The notes under the pieces: generated by a model
The model's input: the letters and a program-made list of their open reading frames with translations, nothing else
The model's database searches: none
Told to the model about the DNA's origin: nothing
Translations under genes and position numbers: made by a program
DNA from: a phage
Strand: one strand, 5' to 3'
DNA length: 64,000 nt
Sequence record: OZ336093.1
Part shown: positions 4,415 through 63,556 of the stretch, piece by piece
Layout of the letters: every line of letters begins with the position of its first letter
Numbering within the stretch: the first letter of the stretch is position 1

Positions 4415-5515
4415 TTATTCATAATCCCTAATAACTATCCCTACAGGAAACTGTAAAGAACCCTTACGAGTCATCTTCTGGAACTGAACAGTTAAAGGTT
4501 TCCCGATAAACTCTTCAGGATGTTCAGCAAGATACTGTTTCTTCTCATGAGTAGTCTTCCATGAGACATCTACAAAGACATTAGGAAGAGTCTCTACAAC
4601 GAACTTGCCATGACCACGTTTATCGGTCTTTACACCAGTCACTTTAAACTCTTCAGTGTGCATCTTCTTGTGCTTAATCAAGAAGTATGAACGGTGACCA
4701 CACTCGTAGAAAGATTCTTCAGAGATTGAGCGGTACATTGCACCTTCAAACTTAGCTTCAACCCACTTATCATGAGCTTCATCAAACTCTTCCCAAGAAT
4801 TTACACGGATAGTCTGCACAGGAACAACTCTACAGGTATCCCCAAGCTCAACAATGGGTGAGTTATCAATAACTTCACGACGCTCAGGCCAAGATTTTGA
4901 ATTGTCACAGATATCATACCAGTAGAATTTAAGAAGGTGACGGTCTGGATTGTCAGCATTCTTAATCATAGATACAATATCTTCTAAGTCCCAACCATGA
5001 GCATAAATCTCTCCATCAAAGTCTTCAACTTGCGGGTGTAATTTAAGCAACAAAAGCAAATCTGGGATTAGTTCTGCTGGAACGTTGTAAACAGTATTCT
5101 CACGAGAATAAGCCGTGAAACTAACTGAATCATCATCTCTTGAAATTCTACAACGTACACCATCCAGTTTTGGTTGAGCATCAGCAGGGAACTTCAGATA
5201 CTTTGCGTGACTAACCTTTGCAGCATCATGAGCAAGCTGTACGCCTACCTTCTCAGTATTCTGTGCAGACTCTTTTGTGTAAGCATAACCTTTACGGTCA
5301 ACTTGCTTTTTATACTTAGCAGCAACTTCAAAGAGAGCTTGCTGTTCAGCATTACGCTCATTCTTTTTACCGATGTTCTTAGGCTCTGCTGTGTACTCTT
5401 CAAACATCATCTTGCCATTTTCTTTACCATAGGTTGTGATAACTTTGTCACCTACAGCAACACATGACCAGACGTTGAAGGAACCATCTTTATTTTGTTT
5501 GTACAGAATTGTCAT
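4415..5515 (-). CDS. ATP-dependent DNA ligase
   Basis: adenylation motif KLDGVRC (KxDG), DGEIY and EGAMYRS motifs, LIKHKK; start at internal Met with GAGG RBS (alternative 5551). Confidence 0.85.
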   Translation of the reverse strand: MTILYKQNKDGSFNVWSCVAVGDKVITTYGKENGKMMFEEYTAEPKNIGKKNERNAEQQALFEVAAKYKKQVDRKGYAYTKESAQNTEKVGVQLAHDAAKVSHAKYLKFPADAQPKLDGVRCRISRDDDSVSFTAYSRENTVYNVPAELIPDLLLLLKLHPQVEDFDGEIYAHGWDLEDIVSMIKNADNPDRHLLKFYWYDICDNSKSWPERREVIDNSPIVELGDTCRVVPVQTIRVNSWEEFDEAHDKWVEAKFEGAMYRSISEESFYECGHRSYFLIKHKKMHTEEFKVTGVKTDKRGHGKFVVETLPNVFVDVSWKTTHEKKQYLAEHPEEFIGKPLTVQFQKMTRKGSLQFPVGIVIRDYE

Positions 5516-53153: not shown

Positions 53154-53618
53154 TTACTTTGGATATACACTGTCAAGATAAATGTCAGCTTCCATTCTAC
53201 GTCTGTTTTTCAGGCCGTTTGAAGTGACCTTCTTACCTTTTACTGTAACCTTGTTCCACCACTGCATAGCTTCTGCACAACCGACCTTATTACCAGCATT
53301 GTGGCGCTTGATAAATGTAGAGTCCTGCATAGCTGTGATACCAATGTTGTATGTTTCACTTACAAGTGCATCAAACTCATTCTGAGAAGTTGGAACCTTG
53401 ATGGCTTTGTTCACTGCTGTAACGAACTTTTCAACATCTGCAAGAAGATACTGTTCAGCTTGTTCAGCGGTAATCTTCATACCCATCTTAACAGGCTTCC
53501 CACCAATACGAATTGTCCCATACCCAATTGTGGGGATTCCAGCAGAATCTTCGTAAGACTCAAGCTTAAGACCTTCAAAGAACTTAATAGCTTCTAAACC
53601 TTTTCTTGAGAGTTGCAT
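53154..53618 (-). CDS. endolysin, glycoside hydrolase family 24 (T4/lambda lysozyme-like)
   Basis: N-terminal LEAIKFFEGLKLESYEDSAGIPTIGYG matches GH24 catalytic region. Confidence 0.8.
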   Translation of the reverse strand: MQLSRKGLEAIKFFEGLKLESYEDSAGIPTIGYGTIRIGGKPVKMGMKITAEQAEQYLLADVEKFVTAVNKAIKVPTSQNEFDALVSETYNIGITAMQDSTFIKRHNAGNKVGCAEAMQWWNKVTVKGKKVTSNGLKNRRRMEADIYLDSVYPK

Positions 53619-54751
53619 TATGCCTCCCCTGCTGTGTTAACAGTAACTGTTGCTGCATTAGATGTTACAGAGCCACCTGCACCAGTAACTACACAGGTGT
53701 AGCTTCCTGCATCAGCAGCGGTTGCACCTTCTTTGGTGTAAGTTGCAGCAGTTGCGTCTGGGATGACTTCCTCACCTTTCTTCCACTGATAACCTGTTGC
53801 ACCAGTAGCCACAACATTCAGCGTTAAGGTCTCACCTTCAGTGATTTCTTGATTGGTTGGCTGTTGAGTAATTACTGGAAGTGCGTTCACAGTTACTACA
53901 GCAGCATTAGATGTCACTGCACCACCCGCACCTGTTACAACGCAAGTATATGAGCCTGCATCTGCTGGCAGAGCACCAGACTTGCTATAGGTAGCATTTG
54001 TAGCTGAAGGAATGTCAGAGCCATCTTTCTTCCACTGGTAACCTGTCGCACCTGTTGCAGTCACTTCCAAGTTAATGCTTCCACCCTCATTGACAGTCTG
54101 ACCAGAAGGCTGCTGTGTAATCACAGGCAGTGCATTAACAGCAACTGTTGCCGCATCTGAGGTAACACTTGTTCCAGCCTCTCCAGATACAACACAAGTG
54201 TATGAGCCAGCATCAGAAGGTACTACGGACTGTTTTGTATAAGTTGCAGAGGTGGCACTAGGAATATCCTCTCCATCCTTTTTCCATTGATATCCAGTGG
54301 CATTCGTTGCAATAACACTTAGGGTAAGCGTACCACCTTCATTTACTGTTTGATTGGTTGGTTGCTGAGTGATTGCTGGTGGCTTGATAGCATCCTTCAA
54401 CTTAGCATTCAACATTGAGAATGGTTTAACTCTTGCCAGCCATTCACAATAAATTGTGTCAACGTCTTTACCATTGATAATTGCATATTGTAAGTCCATG
54501 AAGAAGTCAGAAGTTCTCATTTGAGCACCAATGCTGTAAAGCAACTCATCACTAAATGGAACTTTGTAGTCTGGTTTGTAGTCAAACTCATCGACTTCTG
54601 CAATATCAGCTTCAGGCCAATACGAACTGTAGGTAAGCGGTAAAATAGCCTCTTGATATGTTCTAAAATCATATCTCTTACCAGCCTTTACGTTTGCAAT
54701 GAAGCCCTTCACAAACTCTTTGAAGTCTGGGTAAGTCTTTGCTTTAATCAT
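53618..54751 (-). CDS. protein with three tandem Ig-like domains fused to an N-terminal domain
   Basis: three repeats of about 90 aa each containing TGYQWKKDG...DAGSYTCVV; N-terminal 120 aa paralogous to the adjacent 54748-55119 product. Confidence 0.6.
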   Translation of the reverse strand: MIKAKTYPDFKEFVKGFIANVKAGKRYDFRTYQEAILPLTYSSYWPEADIAEVDEFDYKPDYKVPFSDELLYSIGAQMRTSDFFMDLQYAIINGKDVDTIYCEWLARVKPFSMLNAKLKDAIKPPAITQQPTNQTVNEGGTLTLSVIATNATGYQWKKDGEDIPSATSATYTKQSVVPSDAGSYTCVVSGEAGTSVTSDAATVAVNALPVITQQPSGQTVNEGGSINLEVTATGATGYQWKKDGSDIPSATNATYSKSGALPADAGSYTCVVTGAGGAVTSNAAVVTVNALPVITQQPTNQEITEGETLTLNVVATGATGYQWKKGEEVIPDATAATYTKEGATAADAGSYTCVVTGAGGSVTSNAATVTVNTAGEA

Positions 54752-56828: not shown

Positions 56829-58244
56829 ATGAGCGAATTATTTAAACATGCGCACCTTCATGCAGGTCGAACTGAAAATGGTGCTGTAAACCATACTTCA
56901 TCAATGTCTGCTCTTGTAGACTTTTACAAAGCTGCTGGTTCAAGCCGTAGCAACGTAGAAATCTTACCAGACCTGTTCTACAAAGCTTTGCGTGAGGATG
57001 TTGATGTTGCAGTTCGTATTTTGCTTCATATGCGAGATGTACGAGAAGGCATGGGTGAGCGTAAAGCCTTCAGAACTGTTTTACTTCAAGCGATTGAAGA
57101 TAAGGTTTTAGAACCTACACAGGTTCTTCGCATTATGGATAAGATTGCAGAGCTTGGTCGTTTTGATGACTTCAAAATCTTCGTAGGTACTCGTTTCGAG
57201 ACAGATGCCTTCAAACATTTAGAAGCAGCATTACTAGACCCTGCAACAGCAGGTTTGGCAGCCAAGTGGCTACCACGAGTCAAACCACGTCATAAGCAGT
57301 TTGTAAAACGTTTCTGCAAGTTTGCCAACTTGAGTGAGAAAGAGTACCGCACACTGTTGTCTGCACTATCTGATACAGTTGAGCAAAAAATCTCTGCTAA
57401 TGAGTTTGGTAAGATTGACTACAGTAAGATTCCTTCACTTGCTGCTGCACGTTACCAAAACCTGTTTAACCGTAAAGATGGAGAGCGTTACAAAGCTTAC
57501 ATCGAGTCCTTATCAAAAGGTGAGACTAAGATTAACGCTGGTGCTGTTTACCCATACGATGTGATTAAATCTATTAAGTATGGTAATGCAGATGTTGCTA
57601 ATGAGCAGTGGAAAGCACTACCAAACTGGATGGCAGAAGGTGAAAACATCTTGTGCATGACTGATGTCTCAAGCTCAATGTCTTGGGTGAATCTTGGTTC
57701 AATCACTGCTCTTGATATTGGTGTATCACTTGCATTGTATGTTGCAGAACGTAATACAGGTTGCTTTAAGAATGAGTTGATGGTTTATTCAACAAACCCT
57801 CACTTCATCGAACTGAGTGGTGATTTACGAAACCGTCATCGTCAGGTGATGCGACACGTTGAATATGGCTCAACTAACTTACAAGCAGCTTTTGACCGTA
57901 TTCTTGAGACAGGTAAAAGAAACAACTTGACTCAGAAAGATATGCCAAGTAAGCTTATCATTTTCTCCGATATGGAGTTTAATCAGGTTGATGGTGCTAA
58001 TGGCCGTACAAACTTCGAAGCAATTCGAGATAAGTACGAAAAAGCTGGATATGAGATGCCACAACTGGTATTCTGGTACTTAGCAAACCGTAATGGTACT
58101 TGCGAAGTGTCTGTTAAGGATAACGGTGTAGCAATGGTATCAGGCTTCTCTCCAGCTACTTTAAAAGCTCTGCTTGGTGGTGAGAAGTTTGACCCAATCA
58201 GCGTAATGCTCAAAGCAGTAATGATTGACCGTTATATCTGGTAA
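56829..58244 (+). CDS. vWA-domain protein, possibly Ro60/Rsr-like (TROVE-vWA) RNA-binding protein
   Basis: MIDAS-like motif CMTDVSSSMS with downstream T and SDME residues at vWA-typical spacing; about 260 aa helical N-terminal region; sits directly upstream of tRNA/structured-RNA array. Confidence 0.55.
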   Translation: MSELFKHAHLHAGRTENGAVNHTSSMSALVDFYKAAGSSRSNVEILPDLFYKALREDVDVAVRILLHMRDVREGMGERKAFRTVLLQAIEDKVLEPTQVLRIMDKIAELGRFDDFKIFVGTRFETDAFKHLEAALLDPATAGLAAKWLPRVKPRHKQFVKRFCKFANLSEKEYRTLLSALSDTVEQKISANEFGKIDYSKIPSLAAARYQNLFNRKDGERYKAYIESLSKGETKINAGAVYPYDVIKSIKYGNADVANEQWKALPNWMAEGENILCMTDVSSSMSWVNLGSITALDIGVSLALYVAERNTGCFKNELMVYSTNPHFIELSGDLRNRHRQVMRHVEYGSTNLQAAFDRILETGKRNNLTQKDMPSKLIIFSDMEFNQVDGANGRTNFEAIRDKYEKAGYEMPQLVFWYLANRNGTCEVSVKDNGVAMVSGFSPATLKALLGGEKFDPISVMLKAVMIDRYIW

Positions 58245-58410
58245 AAAAGTTTTAAAAAGGGTATTGACAATGTGTTTAATACCCTTTAATATGTTCTACA
58301 TAGAAACGAAATGAGAGCTTTTCTAAGATACTGAAAAATATTTTAAAAAAGTTCTTGACAATCACTAAAAAATAATGTTAAAGTGGTTACATAGAGTTTG
58401 AAAAGTTTAT

Positions 58411-58487
58411 CTCTGTTTAGCTCAGCTTGGTAGAGCGTTCCGTTTGGGGCGGTAAGGCCGGAGGTTCAAGTCCTCCAACAGAGACCA
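58411..58487 (+). tRNA. tRNA-Pro (anticodon TGG)
   Basis: hand-folded cloverleaf, 7 bp acceptor, T-arm GGAGG-TTCAAGT-CCTCC, CCA encoded. Confidence 0.7.
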
Positions 58488-58494
58488 AATTAAT

Positions 58495-58572
58495 GTTCCA
58501 GTAGACAAAATGGTAAAGTCACCACTCTTTCAAAGTGGATATCTGAGGGTTCAAATCCCTTCTGGAACGCCA
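58495..58572 (+). tRNA. tRNA-Glu (anticodon TTC)
   Basis: acceptor GTTCCAG/CTGGAAC, anticodon loop CTTTCAA, CCA encoded. Confidence 0.7.
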
Positions 58573-58579
58573 GTTTTGA

Positions 58580-58655
58580 CAGAAGACCAATTACAGCAAA
58601 CTTAATCTTATTCATCTGAAGGTAAATCGGACAAAGAAGAGATTTGGTCTGGTCA
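58580..58655 (+). ncRNA. structured RNA element, copy 1 (5' AGAAGACCAA / 3' TTGGTCTGG closing stem)
   Basis: conserved 5' block CAGAAGACCnnTTACAGCAA and 3' block GGTCTGG; stem covaries between copies. Confidence 0.5.
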
Positions 58656-58663
58656 TTAAGAAT

Positions 58664-58740
58664 TGCGGGTATAGAGAAAGGGCGTCTCACATGTCTCATT
58701 AGCATGGTATCGGCAGGTTCGACTCCTGCACCCGCCTCCA
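58664..58740 (+). tRNA. tRNA with anticodon CAT (Met or Ile2), irregular fold
   Basis: T-arm GCAGG-TTCGACT-CCTGC and CCA present; acceptor/D-arm register ambiguous. Confidence 0.5.
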
Positions 58741-58746
58741 AATTTG

Positions 58747-58808
58747 CAGAAGACCGTATTCAGCAACAAAATACTTTTTGCGGATAAAAGAAAAAACACG
58801 GTCTGGCA
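58747..58808 (+). ncRNA. structured RNA element, copy 2 (5' AGACCGT / 3' ACGGTCT stem)
   Basis: same conserved blocks as copy 1 with compensatory stem changes. Confidence 0.5.
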
Positions 58809-58817
58809 ATGTATTAA

Positions 58818-58894
58818 GGTTAGGAAGCACATAAGGTATGTGCGGTCGCCTGTTAAGCGAATGGCACAGGGTTCGAATCCCTGACTAACCGCCA
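58818..58894 (+). tRNA. tRNA-Asn (anticodon GTT)
   Basis: acceptor GGTTAGG/ACTAACC, loop CTGTTAA, CCA encoded. Confidence 0.7.
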
Positions 58895-58903
58895 AATTTA
58901 AAT

Positions 58904-58991
58904 GTGTCGTTATCCCGTAGATGGTAGCGGTGGGGACTGTAAATCCCTTGTCATTGAGACTCGGTAGGTTCGACTCCTACACGGCACACCA
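58904..58991 (+). tRNA. tRNA-Tyr (anticodon GTA), long variable arm
   Basis: loop CTGTAAA, long variable arm, T-arm GTAGG-TTCGACT-CCTAC, CCA encoded. Confidence 0.7.
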
Positions 58992-58996
58992 ATAAA

Positions 58997-59074
58997 GGTT
59001 ATGTAGTTTAATTTGGTTAAAATGCTCCCCTGTCACGGGAGATGATGAGGGTTCAAATCCCTTCGTAACCGCCA
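58997..59074 (+). tRNA. tRNA-Asp (anticodon GTC)
   Basis: stem CTCCC/GGGAG around loop CTGTCAC, CCA encoded. Confidence 0.7.
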
Positions 59075-59135
59075 ATTTTGAGAGGGCTATTTAGCCCCTC
59101 CCTTAAAGGGTTCTTACGAGTATCCTTTAAAGGGG

Positions 59136-59211
59136 CAGAAGACCAAATACAGCAAGAATGTATGAAATTTCAAGCCAATTTAATTTTGAAAATTTAAAAC
59201 TTGGTCTGGCT
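59136..59211 (+). ncRNA. structured RNA element, copy 3 (5' AGACCAA / 3' TTGGTCT stem)
   Basis: conserved CAGAAGACCAAATACAGCAA and TTGGTCTGG. Confidence 0.5.
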
Positions 59212-59222
59212 CAACAAATTTA

Positions 59223-59356
59223 CAGAAGACCGTTTACAGCAAAACTTAAACAATCTATTTCTCCGGTAAAGAAAAGGCGAAGGTTCGATTCCTTCACTCG
59301 GCAGATGTCGAGTTGGTGTAATGGTAGCACTTAAGATGATAAACAACGGTCTGGTA
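59223..59356 (+). ncRNA. structured RNA element, copy 4, with internal tRNA-like module
   Basis: closing stem AGACCGTT/AACGGTCT; interior carries T-arm-like GAAGG-TTCGATT-CCTTC and D-arm-like GTTGGTGTAATGGTAGCAC but no complete tRNA. Confidence 0.5.
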
Positions 59357-59503
59357 ATTATCTTTGTAGATAAGTTATTAAGCTTACCTGTGAGTATGCG
59401 ACCACAAAGGGTGAAAGGGTAAATTCTAGATTTAAACCCAACAAGGCACATCGCTACAGACCTTAAGCAAGTCTGGGTAGCTTATCTACAAAGATAATTT
59501 AAT

Positions 59504-59579
59504 GGAAGTGTAGCAGAATGGTGATGCGGCAGACTTTTAATCTGACAGGCGATGGGTTCGAATCCCTCCACTTCTACCA
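59504..59579 (+). tRNA. tRNA-Lys (anticodon TTT)
   Basis: loop CTTTTAA, T-stem with one bulged T, CCA encoded. Confidence 0.6.
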
Positions 59580-59583
59580 ATAT

Positions 59584-59660
59584 GGTTCAGTCGCAGATAA
59601 GGTAATGCAAGGGTCTCATAAGCCCTATGAATGTGGGTTCGATTCCCATCTGAACCTCCA
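59584..59660 (+). tRNA. tRNA-Met (anticodon CAT)
   Basis: loop CTCATAA flanked by GGG/CCC stem, acceptor GGTTCAG/CTGAACC, CCA encoded. Confidence 0.7.
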
Positions 59661-59661
59661 A

Positions 59662-59738
59662 GCTGGTATAGTTAAGAAGGTTATAACACTCCCCTGATAA
59701 GGGAACATCGGTGGTTCGATTCCACCTACCAGTACCAA
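59662..59738 (+). tRNA. tRNA-Ile (anticodon GAT)
   Basis: loop CTGATAA, T-arm GGTGG-TTCGATT-CCACC, CCA encoded. Confidence 0.65.
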
Positions 59739-59753
59739 TTTCAATAAAGTTGT

Positions 59754-59782
59754 TGACATTGAGATGTGACTACTTTATAGTA
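59754..59782 (+). promoter_or_regulatory. sigma70-like promoter TTGACA-N17-TATAGT inside the tRNA array
   Basis: consensus -35 with 17 bp spacer and TATAGT -10; followed by about 200 nt with no tRNA. Confidence 0.6.
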
Positions 59783-59983
59783 ACCTTAGTTTTCGTTGCG
59801 TAGCGTCTATTTTGCAAATTTAAAATAAATGCAAACGACAATGTTTTTCTGGCAGTAGCTTGATAGGCTAAACACCAGCGAGGTCTTCCAATCCCTCATC
59901 AAAGAATTTGGCGTACTAGCCCACGGTATGATTAATAAGGTGGGCATCTTTAAGGGCTTTCTAAGAGAGTCTTTAAAGATTAA

Positions 59984-60060
59984 TGCACCCTTAGTTCAAT
60001 TGGATAGAGCAACGGTCTTCTAAATCGTTAGTTACAGGTTCGAATCCTGTAGGGTGTGCC
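59984..60060 (+). tRNA. tRNA-Arg (anticodon TCT)
   Basis: loop CTTCTAA, T-arm ACAGG-TTCGAAT-CCTGT, CCA encoded. Confidence 0.7.
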
Positions 60061-60203
60061 AATTAGTTAGCAGATTACTTAGACGACCTAAGCGGGTCTT
60101 CCTGTAGGGAGGTGGTCTGTATCTCATGTTTTCCAGAACATGTAAATAATCTGAGAAGGGGCTTTACAGTGTTGAGATAATACGGTAAGCTTCGAATTAT
60201 AGT

Positions 60204-60286
60204 ATGGGACGATGTTAAGACTCTAAGGCATGAGCAACGGCCTCCAAAACCGTTTCAAAGGGGTTCAAATCCTCCGTCCCATGCCA
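60204..60286 (+). tRNA. tRNA-Trp-like (anticodon CCA), irregular
   Basis: anticodon arm resembles E. coli tRNA-Trp (CTCCAAA loop); about 7 extra nt between acceptor and D-stem. Confidence 0.45.
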
Positions 60287-60299
60287 AAGTCTTATTAGG

Positions 60300-60387
60300 G
60301 GTAGGTAGCGGCTAATGGCAGCCAAACAGTCTTGAAAACTGTTGCCACTGTAGAGATACGGTGAGGGTTCGACTCCTTTACTTACCG
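60300..60387 (+). tRNA. tRNA-Ser (anticodon TGA), long variable arm
   Basis: loop CTTGAAA, long variable arm; CCA not encoded. Confidence 0.65.
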
Positions 60388-60544
60388 CCTAATAAGATTT
60401 AAAGCCAAGCTTCATTCGGATGTTGCTTTGGTATACCGCGTGTATTGTTGTACGCACTGATAAAGCACCTAGTAGGTGTCACGGAGAAGAGATAATATCA
60501 AGCTCTCCAAAGGTTCTAGTCACCGGATTAAACAAGACTATGCA

Positions 60545-60568
60545 AAGACCTTTTTAGGTCTTTTTAGA
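60545..60568 (+). terminator. hairpin terminator within tRNA array
   Basis: AAGACCT-TTTT-AGGTCTT followed by TTTT. Confidence 0.5.
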
Positions 60569-60645
60569 GGGCTTCTAAGGTTATTACAGCTTGTTGTGGA
60601 ACCTTGTTGCTTAGGTTCTTAGAAGTTCTCTAAAAAGATTTAATG

Positions 60646-60723
60646 GGAGATTGACGGTAATTGGTAAACCTACCATCCTTAGAAGTTGGTGTTTGAGGGT
60701 TCGAATCCCTTGTCTCCTACCAA
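60646..60723 (+). tRNA. tRNA with anticodon TAG (nominally Leu) on a short-variable-arm scaffold
   Basis: loop CTTAGAA, acceptor GGGAGAT/GTCTCCT, CCA encoded; weak D-stem. Confidence 0.5.
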
Positions 60724-60730
60724 ATTAATG

Positions 60731-60806
60731 CAGGTGTAGCAAAATGGTTATGCGGCTGACTCTTAATCAGTAAGACGATGGGTTCAATTCCCTCCACCTG
60801 TACCAG
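60731..60806 (+). tRNA. tRNA-Lys (anticodon CTT)
   Basis: loop CTCTTAA; paralogous to the TTT copy incl. bulged T-stem; CCA encoded. Confidence 0.6.
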
Positions 60807-60812
60807 ACATTG

Positions 60813-60888
60813 GGGATGTAGTTTACATGGTTAAAACATAAGTTTTGCAAACTTAAGTACAGGGTTCAATTCCCTGCTTCTCCACCAA
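60813..60888 (+). tRNA. tRNA-Ala (anticodon TGC)
   Basis: D-stem GTTT/AAAC, loop TTTGCAA, T-arm CAGGG-TTCAATT-CCCTG, CCA encoded. Confidence 0.7.
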
Positions 60889-60894
60889 TTAGTG

Positions 60895-60969
60895 CATCCA
60901 TAGTTTAAACGGGAAAATTACAGTCTTCCAAACTGAGGTTGAGGGTTCGATTCCCTCTGGATGCTCCAA
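60895..60969 (+). tRNA. tRNA-Gly (anticodon TCC)
   Basis: loop CTTCCAA, acceptor GCATCCA/TGGATGC, CCA encoded. Confidence 0.65.
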
Positions 60970-60976
60970 ATTAATG

Positions 60977-61053
60977 CTGCTTTCGTATAATTGGCTATTA
61001 CACATCCCTTGTAAGGATGGAAATGCGGGTTCGAGTCCTGTGAGCAGCACCAA
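60977..61053 (+). tRNA. tRNA-Thr (anticodon TGT)
   Basis: stem CATCC/GGATG around loop CTTGTAA, CCA encoded. Confidence 0.7.
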
Positions 61054-61055
61054 TT

Positions 61056-61147
61056 CAGAGGTCAAGTGAAAGACCGCTGGTGTCAACTGAAGACCGTAAC
61101 AAATTCCACGGAGTTGAGTTAGCGGCACAACTTCAGACCTCTTTCAC
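61056..61147 (+). ncRNA. possible small structured RNA between tRNA-Thr and tRNA-Val
   Basis: about 90 nt with internal complementarity (AGTGAAAGA recurs; GAGGTC pairs with GACCTC) and no tRNA fold. Confidence 0.3.
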
Positions 61148-61222
61148 ACTCGCTTAGTTTATATGGTAAAACATCACCCTTACAAGATGAAGAAAAAGGT
61201 TCAAGTCCTTTAGTGAGTACCA
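61148..61222 (+). tRNA. tRNA-Val (anticodon TAC)
   Basis: loop CTTACAA, T-arm AAAGG-TTCAAGT-CCTTT, CCA encoded. Confidence 0.65.
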
Positions 61223-61223
61223 T

Positions 61224-61301
61224 GTTCCAGTATCCCAATTGGCAGAGGATGCAAGCTCAAACCTTGTATTAGTGACGGTTCGAATCCGTCTTGGAACACC
61301 A
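61224..61301 (+). tRNA. tRNA with anticodon CAA (nominally Leu) on a short-variable-arm scaffold
   Basis: stem GCAAG/CTTGT around loop CTCAAAC, T-arm GACGG-TTCGAAT-CCGTC, CCA encoded. Confidence 0.55.
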
Positions 61302-61306
61302 ATTTT

Positions 61307-61382
61307 GCAGGATTAGTTCAAATGGATAGAGCAACAGTCTACGAAGCTGTTAATAGGGGTTCGAATCCCTTATCCTGCGCCA
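61307..61382 (+). tRNA. tRNA-Arg (anticodon ACG)
   Basis: loop CTACGAA, D-arm GTTC..GAGC, CCA encoded. Confidence 0.7.
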
Positions 61383-61399
61383 GATAAAAAGGTGATACT

Positions 61400-61642
61400 A
61401 TGCAAACATTAACAGTAGTTGAACATGAAAACTGTGAGAATATTGAGTTTGTCAGGGTCATTGGTGTTGAACACCACATTTTCTTAAAAGTAGGGTACTT
61501 ATGTGACCCCGCTAGAGTAGAAAGATTTATACGTGATTGTTTTGGTGGTAGACAGCTAAAGAGTGTTATTTTTGAGACAGTTTTACCAGAAGGTTTAGAA
61601 ACGAATAATAACATTTATCTCCTTACAAGGATTAGACGATGA
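61400..61642 (+). CDS. hypothetical protein embedded in tRNA array
   Basis: 80 aa ORF starting 18 nt after tRNA-Arg. Confidence 0.35.
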   Translation: MQTLTVVEHENCENIEFVRVIGVEHHIFLKVGYLCDPARVERFIRDCFGGRQLKSVIFETVLPEGLETNNNIYLLTRIRR

Positions 61643-62196
61643 GATATTTAAAATATGCTTCATGGATTTTCCTAGCTTTGCTAGAACCATTAGCAGCAAC
61701 CTTAGCAGTTATCTTAGCACCTTTCGTAGTTCCATTTTACAGTGAGAAGAAAGGCCACTTACCTTTCGGATTTAGATGGATGGAGACATATGACAACCCA
61801 ATTGATGGTGACGAAGGTCATATCGAACGATGGGCTAAGATTAGAAAGATTGGTAAGCTGGGTGTCTACATGCAGAGAGTCGGATGGCTCTGGAGAAACA
61901 AAGCTTATAACTTCTCTTACCATGTATTAGGAAGAGATGTAAAAGATGTTACTAAGTGGAAAGGTAATATCAACGTAAGTTCTGACCCTGAAGATAATCA
62001 GACAGGTTATCTCCTAATGTGGAACAGTAATGCTTGGGGATTATTCGCTTTTATCCCATCAATTAAAGTCTTTGGTAAACAGTTTTACTGGAGAATTTAT
62101 ATTGGATGGAAACTAAAAAGTGTTGTCCCAGAAGAAAGAGCATTCTCAAGGGAAAGAGTTATGTTGGCATTCTTTATTCATCCACTGAGAAAGTAA
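61639..62196 (+). CDS. hypothetical membrane protein embedded in tRNA array
   Basis: 185 aa, N-terminal TM segment, Trp-rich. Confidence 0.45.
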   Translation: MRYLKYASWIFLALLEPLAATLAVILAPFVVPFYSEKKGHLPFGFRWMETYDNPIDGDEGHIERWAKIRKIGKLGVYMQRVGWLWRNKAYNFSYHVLGRDVKDVTKWKGNINVSSDPEDNQTGYLLMWNSNAWGLFAFIPSIKVFGKQFYWRIYIGWKLKSVVPEERAFSRERVMLAFFIHPLRK

Positions 62197-62204
62197 AGAT
62201 TTAA

Positions 62205-62280
62205 AGGGGATTAGTTTACAAGGTTAAAACCTCGGTCTTTGAAATCGAAGAAGTTGGTTCAATTCCAACATCCCCCGCCA
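62205..62280 (+). tRNA. tRNA-Gln (anticodon TTG)
   Basis: loop CTTTGAA, weak 1-72 pair as typical for tRNA-Gln, CCA encoded. Confidence 0.65.
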
Positions 62281-62282
62281 AT

Positions 62283-62361
62283 ACTCCATTACTCCAATTG
62301 GCAGAGAGGCCAGACTTAAAATCTGTGTTATGTATCGGTTCGAATCCGATATGGAGTACCA
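62283..62361 (+). tRNA. tRNA with anticodon TAA (nominally Leu) on a short-variable-arm scaffold
   Basis: loop CTTAAAA, T-arm ATCGG-TTCGAAT-CCGAT, about 7 nt variable loop, CCA encoded. Confidence 0.55.
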
Positions 62362-62366
62362 AATTT

Positions 62367-62442
62367 AGCGGTATAGCATAACTGGCAATGCAACAGTCTC
62401 TGAAGCTGTCCTATTAAGGTTCAAATCTTTATGCCGCTGCCA
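62367..62442 (+). tRNA. tRNA-Gln (anticodon CTG)
   Basis: loop CTCTGAA, D-stem GCAT/ATGC, CCA encoded. Confidence 0.6.
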
Positions 62443-62471
62443 CTTCTAAGGGTTCTTACGAGAGTCCTTAA

Positions 62472-62547
62472 ATGTGGCCTTATCATAAATGGTAATGACC
62501 CATGCTGTGAACATGGTCTATACGGGTTCAAATCCCGTAGGTCACCC
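62472..62547 (+). tRNA. tRNA-His (anticodon GTG)
   Basis: loop CTGTGAA, discriminator C, CCA encoded. Confidence 0.65.
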
Positions 62548-62553
62548 CAATTT

Positions 62554-62629
62554 ATAGTCCAAGTAGCTTATATGGTTAAAGCGCGTGTCTGAAAAACATG
62601 AGAAGAGGGTTCAAATCCCACTGGACTAC
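62554..62629 (+). tRNA. tRNA-Phe-like (anticodon GAA), irregular
   Basis: loop CTGAAAA, D-stem GCTT/AAGC; acceptor and T-stem register off by one. Confidence 0.5.
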
Positions 62630-62647
62630 CAATTTCAAAGGTGCTTA

Positions 62648-63382
62648 ATGAAAGAGATGACAGAACAAGGTAAGGAGATTTTTAATCTCTTAAAAACCGG
62701 TAAAGGGTTTTCTAACCCACTTATTACTGGTGCAGCAGTTCTCGGTGGAACCGTAGCTGCTTCTACATCACTTGTAAGCTCTATTAGTTCTGTAACAGAC
62801 CCTACAATGCAGGAGAAACTTGTTGCTGCTGGACTTACAACAGTCCTTCTAAACAGCTTTACAACAAGCCTTACAAGCACTACAGCAACTACTAAGACCC
62901 TGACAGACTACGGTCAAAAATCTATTGATGAGTTTTCATCACGTATGCAGGTAGCAAAGGGATATTCCAATGTTATGGGTGCAGCAGGAGAACAAGTTGG
63001 TTGTACACCGTTCAGTGGTATTATGGGTGTTGCTACAGAATATGGTCAAAAAGCTATTGATACGATTAACAGTACACTAGAGAGTGTTAACAATGTATTA
63101 AGTGACTTACAAGACGCTATTGACAAGGGTCTTGATACTGTTTCTGATTTAGCTAACCAAGCTGTCAGTAAGATTAATGAAGGTATCTCAAAGATTACAG
63201 CTTATGCAGATGAAGTTGTGCAGATGATTGAAGAAGAAGCTGCCCTTATTGCAGAGTACCTTAAAACGAATATCAATGGGTTCTTAGCAGGTATCTTACC
63301 AGACTGGTTTGATGATGCCTGTAAAACTGGTGTAATTGACACTATTGCAACACCAGAAATGAAGAACGCATTACAGAAATAA
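62648..63382 (+). CDS. hypothetical Ser/Thr-rich protein embedded in tRNA array
   Basis: start moved to first ATG downstream of tRNA-Phe (track start 62585 overlaps the tRNA). Confidence 0.45.
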   Translation: MKEMTEQGKEIFNLLKTGKGFSNPLITGAAVLGGTVAASTSLVSSISSVTDPTMQEKLVAAGLTTVLLNSFTTSLTSTTATTKTLTDYGQKSIDEFSSRMQVAKGYSNVMGAAGEQVGCTPFSGIMGVATEYGQKAIDTINSTLESVNNVLSDLQDAIDKGLDTVSDLANQAVSKINEGISKITAYADEVVQMIEEEAALIAEYLKTNINGFLAGILPDWFDDACKTGVIDTIATPEMKNALQK

Positions 63383-63383
63383 T

Positions 63384-63476
63384 GGAAGATTAACCCTAAA
63401 AGGTAAGGGAGCAGTTTGCTAAACTGCCAGTAGCTGAGAAATCGGTGTACCAGTTCAAGTCTGGTATCTTCCTCCA
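63384..63476 (+). tRNA. tRNA-Ser (anticodon GCT), long variable arm
   Basis: stem GCAGT/ACTGC around loop TTGCTAA, long variable arm, CCA encoded. Confidence 0.7.
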
Positions 63477-63480
63477 ATTT

Positions 63481-63556
63481 GAATCCGTGACAGAAATGGC
63501 TATGTGCCTGTCTGCAAAACAGGTTTATAAGGGTTCGAGTCCCTTCGGATTCTCCA
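63481..63556 (+). tRNA. tRNA-Cys (anticodon GCA)
   Basis: stem CCTGT/ACAGG around loop CTGCAAA, CCA encoded. Confidence 0.7.

Follow-up and report, generated by a model that had tools for sequence, protein, structure and literature searches.

Metazoan Y RNAs, several paralogs of which are encoded per genome, use paired ends with an asymmetric internal loop as a protein handle and carry in addition a variable loop or module. Phage T4 encodes two small stable RNAs within its tRNA cluster, species 1 and 2 (rnaC, rnaD), which are released by tRNA processing enzymes and for which we know of no Ro-like partner gene. YrlA (RF02553) is encoded beside a Ro60-fold protein of the TROVE type; its terminal stem is the presumed protein handle, and its tRNA-like domain has the order V, T arm, acceptor-like stem-loop (AS) and D arm (Chen et al. 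2014, PMC4201824). The Thermus phage phiLo encodes the recognised Ro60 homolog phiRo60 together with two small RNAs beside its gene, Yrl1 and Yrl2, which were chosen by a CGAA motif and lie outside any tRNA operon (PMC12135203; PDB 9KOP, 9L5Y). Class I RNAs of dictyostelids (RF01414) are abundant cytoplasmic RNAs of ~60 nt with a covarying short terminal stem, an 11-nt motif CCUUACAGCAA by the 5′ strand and a variable interior (PMC7919456). Here we analysed a 64,000-nt stretch of phage DNA (sequence record OZ336093.1, hereafter the window), in which four RNA elements lie in a tRNA operon downstream of a gene encoding a DUF2828 protein. From sequence comparison and a structural model we propose, with a probability of roughly 0.7, that the four elements are small noncoding RNA genes whose products would be Y-RNA-like partners of the upstream Ro60-fold DUF2828 protein.

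The window represents a Felixounavirus-type genome; 283 phage records match it, mostly with 90–99% identity. Its + strand has exactly four CAGAAGACC sites within 650 nt (58580, 58747, 59136 and 59223), and only two other exact sites are present in the remaining 63 kb. Each of the four is followed 58–130 nt later by GGTCTGG (58646, 58800, 59203 and 59348), so that the four repeats which a sequence-only reading had placed in 58580–59356 are real. Copies 1 and 2 each occupy one inter-tRNA gap (Glu/Met and Met/Asn, respectively), and copies 3 and 4 stand in tandem with tRNA-Asp and tRNA-Lys on either side. As predicted by RNAfold (minimum free energy, MFE), all four copies have the same closing architecture, here called the handle. 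It consists of a 4-bp outer stem H1, an asymmetric internal loop with AGA on the 5′ side and G on the 3′ side, a 7–8 bp stem H2 of the general form AGACCNN/NNGGUCU, and the single-stranded (U)UNCAGCAA. H1 is unlike in each copy, with pairing always kept (Table 1). The earlier description of the inner pairs (AA/TT for copies 1 and 3 and GT/AC for the other two) and of a closing helix with preserved pairing is accurate, but the element limits had been drawn too narrowly, since H1 lies beyond the AGA/G loop. The claim that every copy contains UACAGCAA does not hold: because copy 2 reads AUUCAGCAA, CAGCAA is the only strictly common single-stranded sequence.

The stems remain paired in seven related genomes. 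As H1 of copy 2, some Felixounaviruses have TTGC/GCAA and others the compensatory allele TTAC/GTAA, H1 of copy 3 combines GGGC or GAGC with GCTC or GTTC in orthologs, and all four copies are present in a Citrobacter Mooglevirus. Outer and inner stems thus covary among paralogs and orthologs, which supports the selection on RNA structure that had been suspected from the repeats alone. To score such elements we took 27 of them to build a covariance model, R1; its seeds were picked in a fixed register because MAFFT misaligned the Campylobacter elements and one Mycobacterium element. When the whole window was scanned with R1, only the four copies scored, three of them at E ≤ 1.4e-7 (copy 1, 45.6 bits; copy 2, 52.2 bits; copy 3, 47.7 bits); two more matches at E 0.5–0.7 were taken as noise. 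The 90-nt insert of copy 4 limited its match to the 5′ part (18.3 bits, E 0.24), and the Mooglevirus ortholog of this copy was matched by R1 end to end with 39.2 bits.

Table 1. Coordinates of the features discussed (positions in the window, except where an L-number, our handle for a compared locus, is given).
Feature	Coordinates	Strand	Description
DUF2828 + DUF7788 (von Willebrand factor A, vWA) protein gene	56829..58244	+	471 amino acids (aa); Pfam PF11443/PF25043; presumed protein partner
Two sigma-70-like promoters	58264..58384	+	TTGACA-17-TAATAT, TTGACA-18-TAAAGT; ahead of tRNA-Pro; consensus scan
Copy 1, short form	58577..58655	+	H1 TGAC/GTCA; AGA/G; H2 AGACCAA/UUGGUCU; UUACAGCAA; inner 5-bp hairpin with 7-nt loop
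Copy 2, short form	58744..58809	+	H1 TTGC/GCAA; H2 AGACCGU/ACGGUCU; AUUCAGCAA; A-rich 3′ tract
Copy 3, short form	59133..59212	+	H1 GGGC/GCUC (one G-U); H2 AGACCAA/UUGGUCU; AUACAGCAA; inner 7-bp hairpin
Copy 4, long form	59220..59357	+	H1 TTAC/GTAA; H2 AGACCGUU/AACGGUCU; UACAGCAA; encloses a tRNA-like module of circularly permuted order
tRNA-like module of copy 4	59245..59335	+	MFE and centroid fold; order V-T-AS-D
Connecting stem, copy 4	59245-48 with 59332-35	+	CUUA/UAAG
Anticodon-arm-like or V hairpin, copy 4	59258-59274	+	UUUCU-CCGGUAA-AGAAA
T arm, copy 4	59279-59295	+	GAAGG-UUCGAUU-CCUUC
Closed 7-bp acceptor hairpin (AS), copy 4	59296-59313	+	ACUCGGC-AGAU-GUCGAGU
D arm, copy 4	59315-59331	+	GGUGU-AAUGGUA-GCACU
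Mini-handles	L016 4951-4990, L021 1762-1799, L025 2857-2894, L009 3896-3933, L066 4905-4944, L018 ~4947-4987, L004 ~4962-5006		5′ untranslated region (UTR)

Comparison with distant genomes indicates that the handle motif is new and that the window elements belong to a large family found beside the DUF2828 gene in many phages. The Yersinia phage P778, whose DUF2828 protein is 53% identical, has three elements with the helices GGACUG/CAGUCC, GGAUUC/GAAUCC and GGACUC/GAGUCC, followed by UUUACAGCAA or UAUUCAGCAA. Mycobacterium phage Lolly9 has three tandem elements directly 3′ of its DUF2828 gene, with no flanking tRNA. Two are located directly 5′ of the gene in Campylobacter phage CPX, three 5′ of it in Listeria phage LMSP-25, and one after tRNA-Lys, ~1.9 kb upstream of the gene, in Sinorhizobium phage phiM12. 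No element was found in Erwinia phage Tian, which has a syntenic tRNA cluster without the DUF2828 gene. The same helix has been rebuilt from unrelated sequence in phages of five distant host genera and in ~160 metagenomic loci, which bears out the selection on structure and shows that a covariance-model search of other phage genomes, as the sequence-only reading had proposed, recovers the motif. Beyond close relatives only ...YCU-G and CAGCAA are conserved. We found no such RNA family in Rfam or described in the literature searched.

We quantified the linkage in 75 diverse IMG/VR loci retrieved by protein alone. The descriptor used was a helix of ≥7 bp followed by 1–4 nt and CAGCAA; it was tightened from a first, looser version (6-bp helix, YAGCAA), as that one was too noisy. 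On the gene strand its matches occurred at a rate of 0.73/kb in the 500 nt upstream and 0.90/kb in the 500 nt downstream of the gene, vs. a background of ~0.07/kb elsewhere, and the opposite strand of the same 500-nt flanks gave two matches in total. A match lay within ≤1 kb of the gene in 48/75 loci. With R1 at E ≤ 0.1, all 49 matches in the IMG/VR loci were on the gene strand, nearly all of them adjoining the gene. In an independent set of 80 GTDB bacterial-assembly loci, which had no part in model building, 67 of the 68 matches at E ≤ 1 were on the gene strand, mostly just upstream of the gene. These results show that handle RNAs co-locate strand-specifically with DUF2828 genes across very distant phages. 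In the 68 GTDB matches, 99% of 453 helix cells pair and all 7 pairs vary on both sides; the covariation looked for in a larger alignment is present, with 171 doubly changed cells vs. 46±9 in shuffles. Sliding the partner strand cuts the pairing to ~40%.

The DUF2828 gene of the window ends 330 nt upstream of copy 1. Its product is assigned to PHROG 850, 'RNA-binding protein'; GenBank and PHROG names in the family are 'RNA-binding protein' or 'Ro-like', and the mycobacteriophage homologs are named 'Ro-like RNA binding protein'. Searches of the PDB sequences by phmmer and hmmsearch, with the protein and its profile, did not return Ro60. Since these sequence searches found nothing useful, the likeness to Ro60 is revealed by fold comparison only. 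An AlphaFold2 model based on 36 homologs (predicted local distance difference test, pLDDT, 88; predicted template modelling score, pTM, 0.88) is alpha-helical in residues 1–265 and has a Rossmann-like vWA fold in residues 270–465. The top 10 Foldseek matches in the PDB are all Ro60/TROVE structures aligned over the full length, with E 4e-9 to 1e-6 and template modelling (TM) scores of 0.5–0.67. The aligned structures include 9KOP, 9L5Y, 2I91, 1YVP and 2NVO, and the proteins matched include phiRo60 of the Thermus phage (the best), Xenopus Ro60 and Deinococcus Rsr. The DUF2828 protein is thus predicted to have a Ro60-like ring fold, in which a HEAT-repeat ring is closed by the vWA domain. The window gene is the ortholog, at the same position, of bas63_0130 of phage Bas63. 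The PhageMaP preprint describes Bas63 gp130 as a Ro60-like protein that counteracts the ppl defence system; that its Y RNAs lie among the tRNAs is offered there as a hypothesis.

Copy 4 allows a closer comparison with YrlA. Its enclosed module folds in the order V, T, AS, D, as in YrlA, and its D loop contains GG. In the Citrobacter phage, compensatory substitution keeps the acceptor stem paired (ACACG(U)/(G)CGUGU). We also considered whether copy 4 represents a genuine tRNA gene in permuted or split form; this was rejected because ARAGORN is silent, a 4-nt loop without CCA joins the acceptor ends, and the anticodon-like loop is non-canonical (C at 33). The Rfam tRNA model matches its V and T arms (22 bits). 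Among the long forms elsewhere, some hold T arms, some an entire tRNA body in its usual order and some structured inserts of unrelated kinds, and the Rfam YrlA model matches the T/AS/D part (model positions 23–89) of several of them at E 6e-7 to 5e-5, below its gathering score of 69 bits: Lolly9 with 37.7 bits and E 6e-7, L029 with 39.2 bits, and L082 with 38.9 and 28.7 bits. Long and short forms stand side by side here as do YrlA and YrlB, which come from one precursor, as the phage RNAs probably would. At the same time, the YrlA partner belongs to TROVE whereas that of the phage elements would be a DUF2828/DUF7788 protein, the phage handle presents CAGCAA after a 7-bp helix instead of the 5′ motif of YrlA, GNCGAAN0-1G, the presumed contact with Rsr, and the phage elements sit inside a tRNA operon.

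The sequence-only reading had likened the GGTCTGG strand to the Ro-binding helix of Y RNAs. This was right in kind, given a neighbour with Ro60 fold, the YrlA-type module in copy 4 and the significant though sub-threshold YrlA matches of homologous long forms, but the reason was wrong: GGUCUGG is not the canonical Ro-binding motif and is conserved only in close relatives. It resembles GGUCCGA loosely and lies on the opposite (3′) strand, UUGACU is absent as well, and the conserved single-stranded motif of the phage RNAs lies inside the helix. The elements share with metazoan Y RNAs the paired ends with asymmetric internal loop, the variable module and the several paralogs per genome. With phiLo they have in common a phage Ro60-fold protein and small RNAs encoded beside its gene, and they differ in the points given above for phiLo. 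The T4 RNAs rnaC and rnaD, likened here by description, are co-transcribed with phage tRNAs, as the elements would be.

The dictyostelid Class I RNAs provide the second comparison. RF01414 is the only Rfam family that repeatedly aligns end to end with the short elements; it gave full-length sub-threshold matches on six phage elements, and three metagenomic ones reached 23–24 bits. In the window copies 1, 2 and 4 scored 19.7, 24.0 and 12.8 bits, respectively, the best of these being below the gathering score of 41.5 bits. Class I RNAs start with AAG and end with CUGU, both conserved, and have been reported as unique to Dictyostelia and lacking a mechanism (Kjellin et al. 2021, PMC7919456); published examples are GUUGAC-CUUACAGCAA...GUCAAC-UG and GGUCUC-AUCACAGCAA...GAGACC-UG (PMC7919456). 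The phage elements resemble them in a closing stem, 7–8 bp in H2 of all copies, in which pairing is kept while the sequence varies, and in the motif (C)UUACAGCAA located directly 3′ of the 5′ strand (UUACAGCAA in copies 1 and 4, AUACAGCAA in copy 3, AUUCAGCAA in copy 2). The termini are also similar, A-AGACC... and ...GGUCU-G in the window and A-AGR... and ...YCU-G in most metagenomic members, as is the variable interior that ends in an A-rich tract; the RNAs have a median size of ~60 nt, and long forms are rarer. The long Class I forms asu_can_20, ppa_can_99, DdR-66 and DdR-67 contain a T-arm-like hairpin GGUUCGAUCC or a large structured insert (PMC7919456); the GGUUCGAUCC hairpin in long forms of some members parallels the long phage forms. 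Unlike the phage handle with its 3-nt spacer, Class I RNAs have a 6-bp stem and a 4-nt spacer. They are eukaryotic and have their own promoter, the Dictyostelium upstream sequence element (DUSE), ~60 nt upstream, whereas the window elements lie in a phage tRNA operon with sigma-70-like promoters.

We therefore built a second covariance model, R2, from 23 dictyostelid sequences only. Over 911 kb of phage loci it gave 25 matches at E ≤ 0.1, every one on the strand of the DUF2828 gene, with a distance to the gene of at most 2.5 kb for 24 and at most 700 nt for 22; copy 2 of the window is included (18.5 bits, E 0.08). In the GTDB set R2 gave 22 matches at E ≤ 1, of which 21 fell on the gene strand, at places also matched by R1. 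The literature searched does not link DUF2828 with Class I RNAs. The RNA recognition motif (RRM) protein Rnp1A is the only protein shown to bind a Class I RNA directly, and pull-down with DdR-21, a Class I RNA, yielded Rnp1A, GuaB, NdkC and the uncharacterised DDB_G0281243. It is possible, though in our estimate a little short of an even chance, that phage elements and Class I RNAs represent one ancient or horizontally shared ribonucleoprotein (RNP) system, in which a DUF2828 ring protein would read the helix and CAGCAA and the variable module, often part of a tRNA, would give specificity. Since formal tests of membership separate the elements from YrlA by motif and score and from Class I RNAs by score, promoter and taxon, we set them apart from both families and place them as a Y-RNA variant.

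A different function for the handles is suggested by mini-handles of ~40 nt, of the form AGNNNNN-nnnCAGCAA-loop-NNNNNCU-G, which at seven loci stand in the DUF2828 gene's own leader and stop a few bases short of the Shine-Dalgarno (SD) sequence and AUG (Table 1). One lies directly 5′ of the DUF2828 gene in Sinorhizobium phage phiM12, and the one in Vibrio phage phi-Grn1 reaches into the AUG with its 3′ strand. The 5′-UTR mini-handle looks like a site of translational autoregulation, and such mini-handles are the pattern expected of an autoregulating RNA-binding protein. One may then ask whether all elements are cis-acting operators, at which the DUF2828 protein binds handles in mRNAs or precursors and regulates translation or processing, of its own gene or of the tRNA operon, with no RNP acting in trans. 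The nearly constant position of the elements on the gene strand and next to the gene fits this as well. We consider it improbable as a full account: the leader of the window gene has no handle, the copies are multiple, tandem and equipped with elaborate modules including a complete tRNA mimic, and the dictyostelid look-alikes are abundant free small RNAs. Moreover, both roles are compatible, as many RNA-binding proteins autoregulate via mimics of their real target.

The modules raise the question whether the RNAs need the protein at all. Anticodon-arm-like hairpins with a 5-bp stem and a 7-nt loop (e.g., CUGCUAA, CUGUUAA, CUUUUAA) were found in 15 of 70 elements vs. 3.5±1.7 after shuffling, and T arms and whole tRNA bodies occur in others. 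Together with the location in tRNA clusters and an RtcB ligase gene nearby in the Listeria phage, this would suit free tRNA-part mimics that, with no involvement of DUF2828, serve host anticodon nucleases or tRNA-modifying enzymes as decoys or sponges, the handle being a stabilising clamp only. That explanation is about equally hard to credit, as it accounts neither for the invariant CAGCAA nor for the tight tie to one protein family or the mimics in 5′ UTRs, and copies 1–3 of the window have no canonical anticodon loop. Among the short elements, an anticodon-arm mimic with U33, A37 and the anticodon GCU, GUU or UUU is common to L005 5665-5719, L007 3865-3928, L082 6936-6990 and L015 8799-8858, which come from a mycobacteriophage, a Campylobacter phage and metagenomic phages. 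Separately, the insert GAACCUUUCUGGAGGGGAAAGCAAAAACUCGCCAAAA is conserved in the long elements L016 4276-4370, L017 3133-3232, L021 149-280, L025 1265-1373 and L038 4734-4828 and forms a distinct module of one phage group, several members of which are large contigs of 210–240 kb.

The position of all four copies between tRNAs of one operon, with neither promoter nor terminator of their own, and the presence in the same cluster of other structured spacers without the handle would also be expected if the elements were mere tRNA-precursor spacers, which direct or insulate tRNA folding or the processing by RNase P/E before being degraded, with no link to DUF2828. This is very improbable in view of the handles that stand beside DUF2828 without any flanking tRNA (Lolly9, many IMG/VR and GTDB loci, 5′ UTRs) and of the related tRNA cluster of phage Tian, which lacks both gene and handle; processing needs would also leave an invariant single-stranded CAGCAA unexplained. 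The idea that the repeats arose by chance, or are selfish or mobile mini-repeats lacking any RNA function, has nothing in its favour beyond the repetition itself and deserves next to no credence, being already contradicted by comparative data: the motifs occur far more often than expected and come in ordered pairs, conservation of the elements extends to the 283 related phage records, the helix is rebuilt with different sequence in distant taxa, and the matches are confined to one strand.

Several results weigh against the proposal that the elements are RNA partners of the DUF2828 protein. Single-sequence folding z-scores are weak (−1.2 to −2.4), and because of this the argument is built on comparing sequences with one another and not on folding energy. 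Alignments fitted by a covariance model lean towards the model's structure, and the 100% pairing on the seed alignment was not used because it is circular, the descriptor itself demanding pairing. No copy attains any Rfam gathering score; at gathering thresholds only tRNAs were found in the window and nine related loci. Neither copy 4 nor copies 1–3 have a YrlA match even at E ≤ 10, and the canonical Ro60 motifs GGUCCGA and GNCGAAN0-1G are absent from all four. In the adjacent-gene test for YrlA, the Ro60 fold was found by Foldseek (E 4e-9), but Pfam TROVE (PF05731) gave no match to the window protein even at E ≤ 10. About half of the DUF2828 loci have no R1 match at E ≤ 0.1 in the flanks covered, and covariance-model matches were weak or absent in the T4-like phages of Vibrio and Aeromonas. 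Finally, promoters and two tRNAs intervene between the DUF2828 gene and the elements in the window, and the missing leader handle counts here too.

If the elements are indeed Y-RNA-like partners of the DUF2828 protein, the following course can be envisaged. They would be transcribed together with the tRNAs from the two promoters listed in Table 1, which presumably drive one operon of tRNAs and elements; no terminator-like site was found on the + strand between these promoters and the elements. The RNAs would be released as RNase P and 3′-end enzymes mature the flanking tRNAs, and the closing helices H1 and H2 would protect their ends. The protein may recognise the handle through the closing helix, the (U)UNCAGCAA by the 5′ strand and the ...CU-G 3′ end, and the variable interior could serve as the effector module, a permuted tRNA mimic in copy 4 as in YrlA and a small hairpin in copies 1–3. 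The RNP might act in the surveillance or repair of RNA or tRNA or in counter-defence; the latter is suggested because the ortholog Bas63 gp130 is needed against ppl.

Other features of the locus were noted. The tRNA cluster comprises 26 genes on the + strand (58411-63556). The Bas63 annotation leaves the four elements unannotated or overlain by tiny antisense ORFs, and open reading frames (ORFs) of 58–85 aa that overlap the elements (bas63_0137 and 0138 in that annotation) were treated as spurious. Between copy 4 and tRNA-Lys, the 146-nt spacer 59358-59503 (+) is closed by a 22-bp stem around a multibranched interior (folding z −5.5), has no match from Rfam, R1 or R2, and may be another structured RNA of the operon. 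Two further inter-tRNA spacers on the + strand form a long hairpin (60540-60644, z −5.7) and a 95-nt stem-loop (61053-61147, z −3.0). At 60206-60290 (+) there is a tRNA-like sequence with a 10-bp terminal stem and a T arm GGUUCAAAUCC, which was not called by ARAGORN and whose sole Rfam signal is a weak tRNA-Sec match of 22 bits; this is possibly a pseudo-tRNA, or else a tRNA of unusual type. On the − strand, 53618-54751 encodes a 377-aa protein with three tandem Ig-like repeats of ~90 aa (QQPxxQTVNEG...GYQWKKDG...AGSYTCVV), which probably carries a virion decoration or adhesin domain. In Listeria phage LMSP-25 (L008 6808-8019), an RtcB-type 'tRNA splicing ligase' gene follows the DUF2828 gene 1.3 kb downstream and tRNAs lie upstream, a context that recalls the Rsr-YrlA-RtcB repair operon of Salmonella. 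Group I intron matches in Rfam were obtained in element-bearing viral contigs, with 71.5 bits for L029 10696-10922 (gathering 50) and 40.9 bits, below gathering, for L081 3253-3443.

The elements are concrete candidate RNA partners for a Ro60-like phage protein implicated in counter-defence (Bas63 gp130 vs. ppl), and they would tie a large RNA family to a domain of phages, bacteria, giant viruses and eukaryotes. Modules resembling parts of tRNA on a predicted protein-bound handle point to a phage–host conflict over tRNAs. If the tentative link to dictyostelids is true, Class I RNAs would not be unique to social amoebae and their mechanism would be Y-RNA-like, possibly via DDB_G0281243; similar RNA partners would then be expected for the DUF2828 proteins of plants, mimiviruses and bacteria. 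The match in phages makes the role of Class I RNAs, abundant developmental RNAs that have had no mechanism for twenty years, directly testable.

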